Source of the DNA: a virus
Taxonomy: Duplodnaviria > Heunggongvirae > Uroviricota > Caudoviricetes
DNA length: 4,829 nucleotides
IMG/VR virus record: IMGVR_UViG_2690316099_000010
Reading direction: 5' to 3' (one strand)
This document shows, in pieces, positions 1 to 4,829 of the stretch; the stretch's first letter is position 1, and each line of letters opens with the position of its first letter. A model generated the notes under the pieces. That model did no database searches and was not told the origin of the DNA. It saw only the letters and a program-made list of their open reading frames with translations. The translations under genes were made by a program, and so were the position numbers.

Positions 1-28
1 ACACTATCAATAAGTTGGAGTCATTACC
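1..28 (+). mobile_element. IS1 terminus (right inverted repeat end), element body lies left of the window
   Basis: Positions 1-28 (ACACTATCAATAAGTTGGAGTCATTACC) match the 3' end of IS1 as I recall it (ending GGAGTCATTACC) and are the perfect reverse complement of 4799-4826. The identity runs to the window edge, so the element is cut by the window. Orientation is from memory of the IS1 convention. Confidence 0.8.
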
Positions 29-437
29 CGTTAAAACATCTGCAGATAATGACGTTGACTTGGATACAGATGGATTCAGACAACTGAGGATATCGTGCCC
101 ATCCCCTTCTGCCAGCGGTGCGATTATATTGAGAAAAGCTTCTTATGAATTCGGCAAAAGTATAGGTGTATTTGATTTTGCAAACAATGCATCACCAGCG
201 ACGATGACATTTTTGNNNNNNNNNNNNNNNNNNNNNNNNNNNNNNNNNNNNNNNNNNNNNNNNNNNNNNNNNNNNNNNNNNNNNNNNNNNNNNNNNNNNN
301 NNNNNNNNNNNNNNNNNNNNNNNNNNNNNNNNNNNNNNNNNNNNNNNNNNNNNNNNNNNNNNNNNNNNNNNNNNNNNNNNNNNNNNNNNNNNNNNNNNNN
401 NNNNNNNNNNNNNNNNNNNNNNATTAATGATGATTAA
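29..437 (+). CDS. Hypothetical protein, 5' end interrupted or bounded by IS1; AT-rich, unknown function; interior masked (216-422)
   Basis: The frame is open from the IS1 junction with no stop across 29-215 (62 codons, improbable by chance in ~41% GC DNA), while both other + frames and all three - frames contain stops. The same absolute frame resumes after the mask and stops at TAA 435-437 (end ...INDD). A terminator follows 8 nt downstream. No family recognised. The TTG at 15 in the ORF track lies inside the IS1 repeat and is not a credible start. Confidence 0.3.
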
Positions 438-483: not shown

Positions 484-2013
484 ATGGACTTACCTTCTTT
501 ACCTTCTCTTTCTTCACTCTTTTCTGCATCTTCAGGTATCAATTGGCGCGATAATCTTTACGACGCTTCATTTCGTGGCGTTCCGTTTTCGGTGGAGAGC
601 GACGAGGGTTCGTTCGGACGCCGCGTTCAGGTCCATGAATACCCAAACCGTGACAAACCGTACACGGAAGATCTCGGGCGTGCCACGCGACGGCTGACGA
701 TTAATGCGTATCTCGTTGGTGATGATTACGCAGAGCAGCGCGACAGGCTGATTACAGCGATTGAAACCGCCGGGCCGGGGACGCTGATCCATCCGCAGTT
801 CGGTGAAATGCAGGGCTGTATTGACGGGCAGGTGACCGTTTCTCACTCCGGCACTGAAGGCCGTATGTGCCGGGTTTCATTTCAGTTTGTTGAGAGCGGG
901 GAACTGTCATTTCCGGTCGCCGGAGCTGCAACCGCCAGAAAACTGGAGGAGTCGTCCGTATTCCTGGATGAGTTGATTGAAGACATGTTCGGCGATTTTG
1001 ATCTCGCGGGAATACCGGACTTTATTCAGAACGATGTTATTGCCCGGACGACCGATATGCTGGGAACCGTTCAGACAGCTTTCAAAATGGTTAATTCGGC
1101 TGTTTCTGCCGGAGCGAGACTACTGCAGGGCGATTTATCCGTCATTCTGATGCCGCCGTCGGTTGCCAGTGATTTTGTGCATACGTTGCAGGATACCTGG
1201 CGGGCCGGAACCNNNNNNNNNNNNNNNNNNNNNNNNNNNNNNNNNNNNNNNNNNNNNNNNNNNNNNNNNNNNNNNNNNNNNNNNNNNNNNNNNNNNNNNN
1301 NNNNNNNNNNNNNNNNNNNNNNNNNNNNNNNNNNNNNNNNNNNNNNNNNNNNNNNNNNNNNNNNNNNNNNNNNNNNNNNNNNNNNNNNNNNNNNNNNNNN
1401 NNNNNNNNNNNNNNNNNNNNNNNNNNNNNNNNNNNNNNNNNNNNNNNNNNNNNNNNNNNNNNNNNNNNNNNNNNNNNNNNNNNNNNNNNNNNNNNNNNNN
1501 NNNNNNNNNNNNNNNNNNNNNNNNNNNNNNNNNNNNNNNNNNNNNNNNNNNNNNNNNNNNNNNNNNNNNNNNNNNNNNNNNNNNNNNNNNNNNNNNNNTG
1601 GTGGTTCCACTGAACGTCAGTCCGATATTATTCACGTTTCTCATCCGGCACTTGACAGCGTGGCAGCCAGCACAGGACAGGATGAGAGAGCGCAACCACC
1701 CACGCGGGAAAATCTCACCATCATACGCGAATCGCTGAACGCGGCGATTGAACAGGAGCTCAGGCGTACGGCGGATGACAGGCTGTTTTTTCAGCTGACG
1801 TCATTACGTACAGAACTGAACCGGGATATTCAGGCGCGTCTGGTTCAGACGGAGGAAACCGCAGAGCGAACGCCAGCGGAAGTTCTGCCTGCGCTTGTTC
1901 TGGCTGCGTCATGGTACGACGATGCGTCCCGTGAAACTGATATCCTGGATCGAAATGCCATCTCTCATCCGGGCTTTGTTCCGGTCAGGGCATTAAGGGT
2001 ACCCGTCAGATGA
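484..2013 (+). CDS. Phage Mu gp43 (N)-like DNA circulation protein / tail-associated protein; interior masked (1213-1598)
   Basis: 509-codon frame with a good RBS. The N-terminal region (INWRDNLYDASFRGVPF...GRRVQVHEYPNRDKPYTEDLGRATRR...YLVGDDY) matches the conserved motifs I recall for the DNA-circulation N-terminal family. The visible N- and C-terminal parts lie in the same absolute frame either side of the mask, and the stop TGA 2011-2013 overlaps the next start (ATGA). Size is close to Mu N (about 490 aa). Confidence 0.8.
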   Translation: MDLPSLPSLSSLFSASSGINWRDNLYDASFRGVPFSVESDEGSFGRRVQVHEYPNRDKPYTEDLGRATRRLTINAYLVGDDYAEQRDRLITAIETAGPGTLIHPQFGEMQGCIDGQVTVSHSGTEGRMCRVSFQFVESGELSFPVAGAATARKLEESSVFLDELIEDMFGDFDLAGIPDFIQNDVIARTTDMLGTVQTAFKMVNSAVSAGARLLQGDLSVILMPPSVASDFVHTLQDTWRAGTXXXXXXXXXXXXXXXXXXXXXXXXXXXXXXXXXXXXXXXXXXXXXXXXXXXXXXXXXXXXXXXXXXXXXXXXXXXXXXXXXXXXXXXXXXXXXXXXXXXXXXXXXXXXXXXXXXXXXXXXXXXXXXXXXGGSTERQSDIIHVSHPALDSVAASTGQDERAQPPTRENLTIIRESLNAAIEQELRRTADDRLFFQLTSLRTELNRDIQARLVQTEETAERTPAEVLPALVLAASWYDDASRETDILDRNAISHPGFVPVRALRVPVR

Positions 2014-3086
2014 ATGATACCGTTTTACTTCGGGTTTCCGGTCGCGAATGGGGCGGCTGGACATCCGTCCGTATCAGTGCGGGCATTAACCGTATTGCCC
2101 GGGATTTTAATGTTGCCATTACCACCCGCTGGCCCGGAAGCCGGGATTATCAACCCCGGATAAAAAATGGTGAGCTGGTTGAAGTGCTTATCGGGGATGA
2201 GCCTGTGCTCACCGGATATGTGGAGGCACTACCGCTTCGTTATGACGCCAGCAGCGTCAGCATGGGAATTGTCGGGCGAAGCAAAACAGCCGATCTGGTT
2301 GACTGCTCTGCTTTGCCACTCCAGCAGAGCGGAAAAAACCTGCTCAGAATAGTCAGTGAACTGGCTGCGCCATTTGGCATCACCGTTGTTGATGCTGGCG
2401 TGCCGCAGACAGCGGTGATTGATGCCCAGCCGGAACACGGCGAAACCGTTGCCGATTGTCTTAACCGGTTACTGGGGCAGGTTCAGACGCTGGCTTATGA
2501 CGATGAATGCGGGCGACTGGTTCTGGGAAAACCCGGAACAGGTAAAGCGGCGACGGCGCTGGTGCTGGGAGAGAATATTCTTTCCTGTGACACGGAAAGA
2601 AGCATCAGAGAGCGGTTTTCTGAATATCAGGTCAGTGGGCAGCGCCCGGGCAACGACGATGATTTTGGTGAGGCCACCATTGCCGCAATACGTCAGACCA
2701 TTCAGGACAGTGGCGTGACCCGTTATCGCCCTTTGTTGATTCAGCAGTCAGGCACAGCAACGACAGCAACCTGTAAGGCCCGTTGTGAATTTGAAGCGCG
2801 CCAACGGGCTGCGCTTACCCGTGAGACAACATATACGGTTCAGGGCTGGCGGCAGGGCAGTGGCGCGTTATGGCGTCCGGGGTTATCTGTCATCGTTTTC
2901 GACCCGCTGAATAATTTTGATAATGATGAACTGGTGATCGCAGAAGTTACCTATAACCAGGACGACCGGGGCACGACGACTGAATTACGGGTTGGCCCGG
3001 CAGATGCTTATCTCCCCGAGCCTGTTACCGCCAGGAAGAAAAAAATGTTGAGGAGGATTTCTGATGAACGGGTTTTCTCTTCGTAA
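2010..3086 (+). CDS. Phage Mu gp44 (P)-like baseplate hub protein (late control D-type tail protein family)
   Basis: Uninterrupted 358-codon frame, fully visible. The ATG overlaps the upstream stop in an ATGA, which indicates translational coupling. Size and position immediately after the N homolog fit Mu gene order. Family call is from remembered similarity and synteny, not a search. Confidence 0.75.
   Translation: MNDTVLLRVSGREWGGWTSVRISAGINRIARDFNVAITTRWPGSRDYQPRIKNGELVEVLIGDEPVLTGYVEALPLRYDASSVSMGIVGRSKTADLVDCSALPLQQSGKNLLRIVSELAAPFGITVVDAGVPQTAVIDAQPEHGETVADCLNRLLGQVQTLAYDDECGRLVLGKPGTGKAATALVLGENILSCDTERSIRERFSEYQVSGQRPGNDDDFGEATIAAIRQTIQDSGVTRYRPLLIQQSGTATTATCKARCEFEARQRAALTRETTYTVQGWRQGSGALWRPGLSVIVFDPLNNFDNDELVIAEVTYNQDDRGTTTELRVGPADAYLPEPVTARKKKMLRRISDERVFSS
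3051..3056 (+). promoter_or_regulatory. Shine-Dalgarno (AGGAGG) for the CDS starting at 3064
   Basis: Perfect AGGAGG sits 7 nt upstream of ATG 3064, inside the 3' end of the preceding gene. Confidence 0.65.
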
Positions 3087-3165
3087 TCTGATTTCCCGGG
3101 CTGTCATCACGGCGGTGGATTCCGCCAGAAAGTGTCAGTCTGTAGGGTTGAAAATGATAGCCGGA
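3064..3165 (+). CDS. Phage baseplate assembly protein V / Mu gp45-like spike protein, 5' portion only; 3' end lost in masked region
   Basis: Strong RBS, ATG at 3064, and an N-terminus (MNGFSLRNLISRAVITAVDSARKCQSVGLKMIAG) resembling the gpV-family start pattern. Position after the P homolog fits Mu-like order. Only 34 codons are visible; the ORF-track length of 447 aa is an artefact of translating N. Confidence 0.55.
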
Positions 3166-3801
3166 NNNNNNNNNNNNNNNNNNNNNNNNNNNNNNNNNNN
3201 NNNNNNNNNNNNNNNNNNNNNNNNNNNNNNNNNNNNNNNNNNNNNNNNNNNNNNNNNNNNNNNNNNNNNNNNNNNNNNNNNNNNNNNNNNNNNNNNNNNN
3301 NNNNNNNNNNNNNNNNNNNNNNNNNNNNNNNNNNNNNNNNNNNNNNNNNNNNNNNNNNNNNNNNNNNNNNNNNNNNNNNNNNNNNNNNNNNNNNNNNNNN
3401 NNNNNNNNNNNNNNNNNNNNNNNNNNNNNNNNNNNNNNNNNNNNNNNNNNNNNNNNNNNNNNNNNNNNNNNNNNNNNNNNNNNNNNNNNNNNNNNNNNNN
3501 NNNNNNNNNNNNNNNNNNNNNNNNNNNNNNNNNNNNNNNNNNNNNNNNNNNNNNNNNNNNNNNNNNNNNNNNNNNNNNNNNNNNNNNNNNNNNNNNNNNN
3601 NNNNNNNNNNNNNNNNNNNNNNNNNNNNNNNNNNNNNNNNNNNNNNNNNNNNNNNNNNNNNNNNNNNNNNNNNNNNNNNNNNNNNNNNNNNNNNNNNNNN
3701 NNNNNNNNNNNNNNNNNNNNNNNNNNNNNNNNNNNNNNNNNNNNNNNNNNNNNNNNNNNNNNNNNNNNNNNNNNNNNNNNNNNNNNNNNNNNNNNNNNNN
3801 N

Positions 3802-3938
3802 GCTGTGATTATTTCGCTTTTTACATGGCGGCGTGCCGGGCGTGATGATGCACCACGGATATTTGGATGGTGGGGGGATACCTGGCCTGCGGTTCAGAAT
3901 GATCGCACGGGGTCGCGTTTGTATCTGTTGCGACGCAG
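3802..3938 (+). CDS. Phage GP46-family baseplate protein (Mu gp46-like), internal fragment between two masked blocks
   Basis: The visible frame AVIISLFTWRRAGRDDAPRIFGWWGDTWPAVQNDRTGSRLYLLRR carries the GWWGD ... GSRL(W/Y)LL motif I associate with the GP46 family, and sits in the expected position between the gpV-like and J-like genes. Both ends are masked. Confidence 0.5.
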
Positions 3939-4375
3939 NNNNNNNNNNNNNNNNNNNNNNNNNNNNNNNNNNNNNNNNNNNNNNNNNNNNNNNNNNNNNN
4001 NNNNNNNNNNNNNNNNNNNNNNNNNNNNNNNNNNNNNNNNNNNNNNNNNNNNNNNNNNNNNNNNNNNNNNNNNNNNNNNNNNNNNNNNNNNNNNNNNNNN
4101 NNNNNNNNNNNNNNNNNNNNNNNNNNNNNNNNNNNNNNNNNNNNNNNNNNNNNNNNNNNNNNNNNNNNNNNNNNNNNNNNNNNNNNNNNNNNNNNNNNNN
4201 NNNNNNNNNNNNNNNNNNNNNNNNNNNNNNNNNNNNNNNNNNNNNNNNNNNNNNNNNNNNNNNNNNNNNNNNNNNNNNNNNNNNNNNNNNNNNNNNNNNN
4301 NNNNNNNNNNNNNNNNNNNNNNNNNNNNNNNNNNNNNNNNNNNNNNNNNNNNNNNNNNNNNNNNNNNNNNNNNNT

Positions 4376-4798
4376 CTTGCCAGAAATCTGTTACCGGACG
4401 TGTGTGATGAAGACTGGCTGTACCGGCACGCCAGAATCAAACGCTGCCCGCGAAAAGAAGCGGTGGCAGCCCGGGGATTTGTGCGCTGGGATGGCGTAGA
4501 GGGGACGCCGGTATTGCCAGCGGGAACGCAGATCCAGCGTGATAATCAGGTGACCTTTACCACGACGGCGACGGTGACCGCAGCCGATGGTCTTCTCCGG
4601 GTGCCTGTTGTGGCAGACGAACCGGGATCGGCGGGGAATACGGATGATGGTATTGCCATGCAACTGGGAACACCCGTCAGTGGTCTGCCGTCCACAGGGT
4701 ACGCTGACACCATTACAGACGGTGAAGATATTGAAAATCTGGAAATATGGCGTGCCCGCGTTATGGAACGTTATTACTACATTCCACAGGGGGGCGCA
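4376..4798 (+). pseudogene. Baseplate J-like protein (Mu gp47 family), 5' end in masked region, coding frame interrupted by IS1 at 4798/4799
   Basis: This frame (phase of 4376) is not in the ORF track because it has no stop inside the window. It translates without stops to ...RKEAVAARGFVRWDGVEGTPVLPAGTQIQRDNQVTFTTTATVTAADGLLRVPVVADEPGSAGNTDDG...TDGEDIENLEIWRARVMERYYYIPQGGA, matching the Baseplate_J pattern as I recall it. The frame then runs straight into the IS1 terminal repeat, and the expected C-terminal third is absent. Confidence 0.7.
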
Positions 4799-4829
4799 GG
4801 TAATGACTCCAACTTATTGATAGTGTTTT
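4799..4829 (-). mobile_element. IS1 terminus (right inverted repeat end, reverse orientation), element body lies right of the window
   Basis: 4799-4826 (GGTAATGACTCCAACTTATTGATAGTGT) is the perfect reverse complement of 1-28 and matches the IS1 end as recalled. The following TTT is consistent with continuation into IS1 (TTTATG...). Confidence 0.8.

Follow-up and report, generated by a model that had tools for sequence, protein, structure and literature searches.

An IS1 insertion splits the Mu gp47-like baseplate gene of a phiP27-like prophage remnant in Shigella sonnei

The baseplate wedge gene carried by the viral DNA analysed here (the window: 4829 bases with five N runs, part of a Mu-type contractile-tail module) runs directly into an IS1 element. 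This is almost certainly the outcome of a simple IS1 transposition into the gp47-like gene of a phiP27-like S. sonnei remnant, which left the two halves of the gene collinear and would have cost the element a functional wedge. All unmasked segments of the window are 100% identical to, and collinear with, HE616528.1 (locus L004 below), the sequence of Shigella sonnei 53G (PMC5447701). At the 53G locus (HE616528.1, about 3,027,700-3,029,600) the position and orientation of IS1 and its 9-bp duplication are all as in the window, and we detected no difference except the over-long N runs of the latter. The window itself stops 31 nt into IS1; the far junction and the C-terminal half of the gene are shown in identical public genomes.

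Related loci came from an exact look-up of the 358-aa hub protein encoded in the window, which yielded ten chromosomes or contigs (L003-L012), of which four were confirmed as S. sonnei. This protein was found in 348 index blocks, and for 274 of these the longest contig belonged to the size class of 2-5 kb, which fits a fragment whose IS1 ends interrupt assembly. A tail module with an intact gp47-like gene lies in E. coli FDAARGOS_944 (L001; NZ_CP065613.1 622407-638831). The features of the window are as follows.

1-28, plus strand: outer 28 nt of a second IS1, IRR end; same sequence as L004 8157-8184, where the IS1 at 7417-8184 ends.
29-37, plus strand: right copy of the 9-bp target duplication CGTTAAAAC; L004 reads AACGTTAAAAC, IS1, CGTTAAAACATC.
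29-437, plus strand: 3' part of a phrog_5586 gene (160-aa product; E=9.7e-89 to phrog_5586), an intact open reading frame in L006, L012 and L001.
484-2013, plus strand: Mu gp43-like tube initiator, annotated 'DNA circularization protein'; PF07157 on the 463-aa product in L003-L012.
2010-3086, plus strand: Mu gp44-like baseplate hub, 358-aa protein, unmasked.
3064-3165, plus strand: Mu gp45-like spike, start only, the rest masked; L004 11055-11588, PF06890.
3802-3938, plus strand: internal piece of Mu gp46-like baseplate wedge 1; L004 11657-11793, within the PF07409 gene.
4376-4798, plus strand: visible part of the Mu gp47 / Baseplate_J gene (baseplate wedge protein 2); open frame, PF04865, identity to relatives.
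4790-4798, plus strand: left copy of the 9-bp target-site duplication GGGGGCGCA, which flanks IS1 on either side in L003-L012 and occurs a single time in L001.
4799-4829, minus strand: outer 31 nt of IS1, IRR end (GGTAATGACTCCAACTTATTGATAGTGTTTT); identical to L004 12591-12621.

The visible part of the interrupted Mu gp47 / Baseplate_J gene, 4376-4798, covers codons 58-198 out of 360, with codon numbers taken from the alignment with S. sonnei 53G (gene start at L004 11997; window 4375 equals L004 12167). Codon 58 begins at 4376, and codons 1-57 are hidden in the masked run 3939-4374; since the window is N-masked to 4374, 4376 is not the start of the gene. Translation of 4376-4828 gives an open frame that starts LARNLLPDV, reaches ERYYYIPQGGA and then reads GNDSNLLIVF within IS1. 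The fragment matches PF04865 with 87.4 bits, above the curated cutoff of 21.1 (E=1.3e-24), over profile positions 2-134 of 255. An intact homologue scores 185 bits over positions 2-255, and the 3' piece found beyond IS1 in related loci covers positions 132-255, complementing that of the window. The visible part is 100% identical to the E. coli FDAARGOS_944 gene WP_000785589.1, annotated 'baseplate J/gp47 family protein', and shares 98.4% nucleotide identity with P27p52 of phiP27; in both, the gene is an uninterrupted 1083 bp of 360 codons. Its neighbourhood is conserved as well, the genes called in L003-L012 being GpP-like/Gp44-like, Phage_Mu_Gp45, GP46, Baseplate_J and Phage_Mu_Gp48. Family membership thus has the support of profile, neighbourhood and homology to a characterised member, Mu gp47, known from a solved baseplate; full-length coding capacity is missing, as IS1 splits the gene after codon 198 of 360, and we class it as a pseudogene of the family.

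The break falls at 55% of the gene, window 4798 being the last base of codon 198, and homology to the intact gene ends exactly at 4798/4799. Among 5,426 complete E. coli genomes searched by megablast, 50 carry the gene, with matches that span only query positions 1-425 (window 4375-4799); the match to phiP27 likewise stops at query 425 (window 4799). The junction with IS1 occurred in none of these 50 gene-bearing genomes, and the insertion is therefore not E. coli-wide. Exact matching of the 35-nt junction sequence to the species-representative genomes of GTDB likewise gave no hit; S. sonnei presumably has no separate representative there.

The intact homologue aligns with Mu gp47 (chain 9ki1_H, 360 aa) over residues 37-351 (phmmer, E=4.1e-36), an alignment that crosses the break and pairs RYYYIPQGGA followed by DPDYVIWAKEVQGINRAW with Mu RVQYPPFGGN followed by QFDYVRWAREVSGVTRAW. 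After GGA the intact 360-aa protein runs on with DPDYVIWAKEV, paired with GG-NQFDYVRWAREV of Mu, so that the break lies between GG(A) and a conserved D-Y--WA-EV segment. The chance that the protein ends naturally near the break, or that the frame does not belong to Baseplate_J, is practically negligible: Mu gp47 aligns across the break, intact homologues are 360 aa long and 98-100% identical up to it, and the PF04865 score stands at 87 bits. The first-pass annotation of this DNA, made from its letters alone, had described a J-like frame reading cleanly to IPQGGA at 4798 and entering the IS1 terminal repeat at 4799, which translation and megablast confirm, and had expected a conserved segment after the GG motif, which the Mu alignment bears out, the gene having no natural end there. 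Its view of the frame as a Baseplate_J homologue also holds, on the strength of PF04865 and the 9ki1_H match. It had put the break at about two thirds of the gene, which is wrong, and had proposed alignment to both Mu gp47 and P2 gpJ; the former placed the breakpoint, and the latter (302 aa) was too distant in its N-terminal half to do so.

The interrupting sequence belongs to IS1 and reads on the minus strand of the window. Positions 4799-4829 and 1-28 are both the IRR end of the terminal inverted repeats, and in L004 and other loci IRL and IRR lie 768 bp apart. The L004 element is 768 bp long, with a 91-aa insA, an insB' frame and the A6C site of the programmed -1 frameshift (motif TTAAAAAACTC at IS1 position 305). 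In 53G, insA begins with GTG and encodes 91 aa with Zn_ribbon_InsA/HTH_Tnp_IS1, and the insB frame is open and matches DDE_Tnp_IS1. Target duplications of about 9 bp accompany both copies, GGGGGCGCA at the right-hand and CGTTAAAAC at the left-hand one. In length, inverted repeats, insA and insB', A6C site and 9-bp duplication the element shares everything with IS1 of E. coli and Shigella, and we found no difference; the window holds only its outer 28-31 nt.

Both sides of the right-hand insertion can be read in the related loci. The window copy of GGGGGCGCA, at 4790-4798, forms codons 196-198 (Gly-Gly-Ala), and the order in L004 is ATTCCACAG GGGGGCGCA, then IS1 (12591-13358, 768 bp, IRR first), then GGGGGCGCA GACCCTGATTATG; the intact gene has one GGGGGCGCA followed by GACCCTGATTATG. 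IS1 occupies the identical gp47 site, with GGGGGCGCA on both sides, in ten of ten related chromosomes or contigs, and is 768 bp long in eight, 767 bp in one and internally deleted to 449 bp in one. Codons 199-360 (162 codons) follow it directly, and in-silico removal of IS1 and one copy of GGGGGCGCA restores the 360-aa frame in 9/10 loci, the restored frame differing from the E. coli protein by H238R only, with E99G in addition at one locus. L005 (UGZB01000001.1), the remaining locus, has lost 1 bp in a G run just before the IS1 junction, at about 12580-12590. It has a second single-base gap in the gp46-like region, and these losses may be homopolymer sequencing errors of the assembly.

The predicted 9-bp target duplication was therefore found, as was the rest of the gene beyond the right-hand IS1, where the C-terminal 162 codons lie in the related genomes. 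An inversion, or a remainder lying beyond the left-hand IS1, had been offered as well; neither is needed, the remainder being adjacent and collinear. On the far side of the left-hand IS1 come the 5' portion of the phrog_5586 gene and, past it, the tape-measure gene.

The same collinearity, in ten of ten related genomes or contigs, weighs against a history in which, in the genome that the window comes from, the 3' half was moved or removed by recombination or deletion between copies of IS1, whether by a 4.4-kb inversion or by an adjacent deletion. Such an event has a good substrate in the flanking IS1 copies, which are inverted and 768/768 identical in 53G; IS-mediated rearrangements are frequent in Shigella (PMC8072062), and the far junction lies outside the window. 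The 9-bp duplications, however, are intact at the right IS1 in all ten loci and at the left IS1 in L004, where it was checked, as is characteristic of a simple insertion that has not recombined since, and we consider this history very unlikely. We judge it extremely improbable that the IS1 end is an assembly artefact, a chimeric contig end on a gene intact in the organism: repeat contig ends are error-prone and both ends of the window are IS1, but the same junction appears in independently assembled complete chromosomes (53G HE616528.1, CP180280, CP179997, CP179990 and others). We thus retain simple insertion of IS1.

The left-hand IS1 arrived separately, as a simple insertion that made a duplication of its own, CGTTAAAAC. 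Window 1-28 is the reverse complement of the last 31 bases minus three, and the two end copies are mutually inverted; in L004 the copies bounding the 4.4-kb segment (7417-8184 and 12591-13358) are identical at 768/768 positions. That this identical inverted pair acts as an invertible or composite-transposon-like unit, with the segment flipped or moved in some S. sonnei and the left IS1 as a lineage marker, seems to us unlikely. No inverted arrangement of the segment was seen in ten genomes, and such a unit is not required because the ten genomes are collinear and the checked target duplications intact.

The left-hand copy splits the phrog_5586 gene, which sits between the tape-measure and gp43-like genes, is masked at 216-422 of the window, and is an intact 160-aa open reading frame at 8084-8566 of L006 and L012 and at 3914-4396 of L001. 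The left IS1 is missing from L006 (CP180280) and L012 (CP179997), both lineage 1 S. sonnei (PMC12511311), and is present in 53G, of lineage II, and in CP179990, of genotype 2.3. Hawkey et al. placed an IS1 burst on the branch to lineages II and III (PMC7373316); the distribution of the left IS1 fits a burst before these lineages but does not prove it, and this copy may serve as a lineage marker. All ten loci carry the gp47 IS1, so it is older than the left-hand one. We conclude that the gp47 insertion is old and fixed, and common to lineage 1 and lineage 2 S. sonnei.

Two further observations concern this end of the window and its IS1 copies. At 443-473, right after phrog_5586 and 11 nt before the gp43-like start, is a hairpin that resembles a terminator and has a T run (AAGCCGCCAGAAATTGGCGGTTTTTTTT); odd inside a tail operon, it suggests that the phrog_5586 gene may be a separately acquired insert (moron). 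In L010 (CP029794.1, a 4.54-Mb chromosome) the IS1 copies at 7721-8184 and 12590-13038 are each short by about 304-318 bp internally, with gaps at IS1 positions of about 212-515 and 213-530 that are either real deletions or an assembly problem, and the prophage remnant directly adjoins bamD (yfiO).

The window is best explained as a short-read-type contig of Shigella sonnei, or of something very close to it, cut off at both ends within collapsed IS1 repeats. IS1 transposed into codon 198/199 of a 360-codon wedge gene of the Mu gp47 / P2 J family, duplicating 9 bp (GGGGGCGCA) and leaving both gene halves in place and collinear. Under simple insertion the other end of the right-hand IS1 should read IRL-GGGGGCGCAGACCCTG, and window 4700-4798 should link through a 768-bp IS1 to GGGGGCGCAGACCCTGATTATGTTATCTGG. 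The 5' half, reading into IS1, would give a 224-aa product of 198 native and 26 IS1-encoded residues, and the 3' half of 162 codons lacks a start codon; the truncated product would retain the N-terminal part but not the conserved C-terminal half.

Mu gp47 is the wedge protein BW2, of which two conformers per wedge contribute to a core helical bundle and an inter-wedge handshake (PMC11915804). By analogy with this role in the Mu baseplate, the split gene would be unable to supply a functional wedge, and homology likewise points to a probable loss of function of the tail module. Baseplate wedge protein 2 of Mu (PDB 9ki1 chain H) has the same length as the intact homologue, 360 aa, at about 34% identity; the Mu gene is intact and lies in a gp43-gp48 gene string, in the same position as in the module of the window.

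The gene belongs to a phiP27-like prophage remnant adjacent to ssrA/smpB in S. sonnei, a species in which PHAST-type analyses have already flagged phiP27-like regions (PMC5447701). The tail module of phiP27, an Stx2e phage, comprises P27p44-P27p57 and has the same gene order as the relative of the window, with P27p52 (L52) as the gp47-like gene: sheath, tube, chaperone, tape measure, gp43-, gp44-, gp45-, gp46-, gp47- and gp48-like genes, then fibres. phiP27 differs in that it is an intact phage whose 360-aa gene is whole where that of the window is split by IS1, has no phrog_5586 gene (160 aa) between its tape-measure and gp43-like genes, and has head genes beside its tail module, which 53G lacks. 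Compared with the full phiP27 genome, the 53G locus represents only two stretches: 25382-25831, where 450 bp of the prohead-protease gene survive, and 29339-42214, which spans the sheath gene through the fibres. The major head, adaptor and neck genes between them (25832-29338) are gone, with an IS3-family element in their place and an IS4 upstream. Upstream of the sheath gene (L004 1-3018; L006 1-3795) the 450-bp protease fragment, flanked by IS3-family and IS4 elements, is the sole phage remainder, and the lineage-1 locus L006 has an extra 633 bp of the portal gene beyond IS4.

The modules of a functional phiP27-like prophage are incomplete within the 21-kb loci, head, adaptor and neck genes being missing and two genes split by IS1. 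The first-pass reading of a defective prophage or tail remnant gains independent support from the absence of head, adaptor and neck genes beside the tail module and from the other IS elements. We also considered a domesticated tailocin and rejected it on account of IS1 in two genes and the frameshifted end of the hub gene; the FDAARGOS_944 relative, with its intact gp47, has a truncated sheath gene, which also speaks against it. Just downstream of the module in that genome lies a frameshifted ipaHe effector gene, which suggests a Shigella/EIEC-like background.

Because the head, adaptor and neck genes are already missing beside this tail module and other IS elements abound in the prophage, the gp47 insertion has little further consequence; precise excision of IS1 would restore the gp47-like frame, but no phage. 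What we describe is a commonplace case of a pseudogene made by IS1, and published genomes already show it. No other IS is as abundant in Shigella as IS1; each reference chromosome has 229-348 IS insertions (PMC7373316), and IS1 is recognised as driving gene loss in the genus (PMC7373316; PMC8072062). In annotation, the baseplate J/gp47 gene should be entered as an IS1-disrupted pseudogene, not as a short protein, and the contig as a piece of a decayed phiP27-like S. sonnei prophage, one more case of the erosion of Shigella genomes by IS1. The two IS1 junctions could be phylogenetically informative and could explain assembly breaks.

The remaining tail genes of the window follow the Mu order, with roles, including that of gp43 as tube initiator, taken from the Mu proteins (PMC11915804). 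The N runs at 216-422, 1213-1598, 3166-3801 and 3939-4374 exceed the 53G sequence by 27, 138, 136 and 63 nt, apparently through the masking itself, so the lengths of ORFs running across a mask are artefactual as well, as for the gp43-like gene, which encodes 463 aa in relatives and 509 aa in the window. The hub gene has an A-run at 3039-3045 that is A7 in the window and S. sonnei and A8 in E. coli FDAARGOS_944. This 1-bp deletion replaces the last 6 residues and adds 7, changing the C-terminus from KKKNVEEDF to KKKMLRRISDERVFSS, and the frameshifted gene overlaps the gp45-like start by 23 nt. The gp46-like gene of L004 (11594-12004) encodes 136 aa with PF07409. Its piece in the window, 3802-3938, has 89% identity to E. 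coli FDAARGOS_944 and 93.6% to phiP27, with one indel each, against 98-100% for the flanking genes, which indicates local mosaicism.
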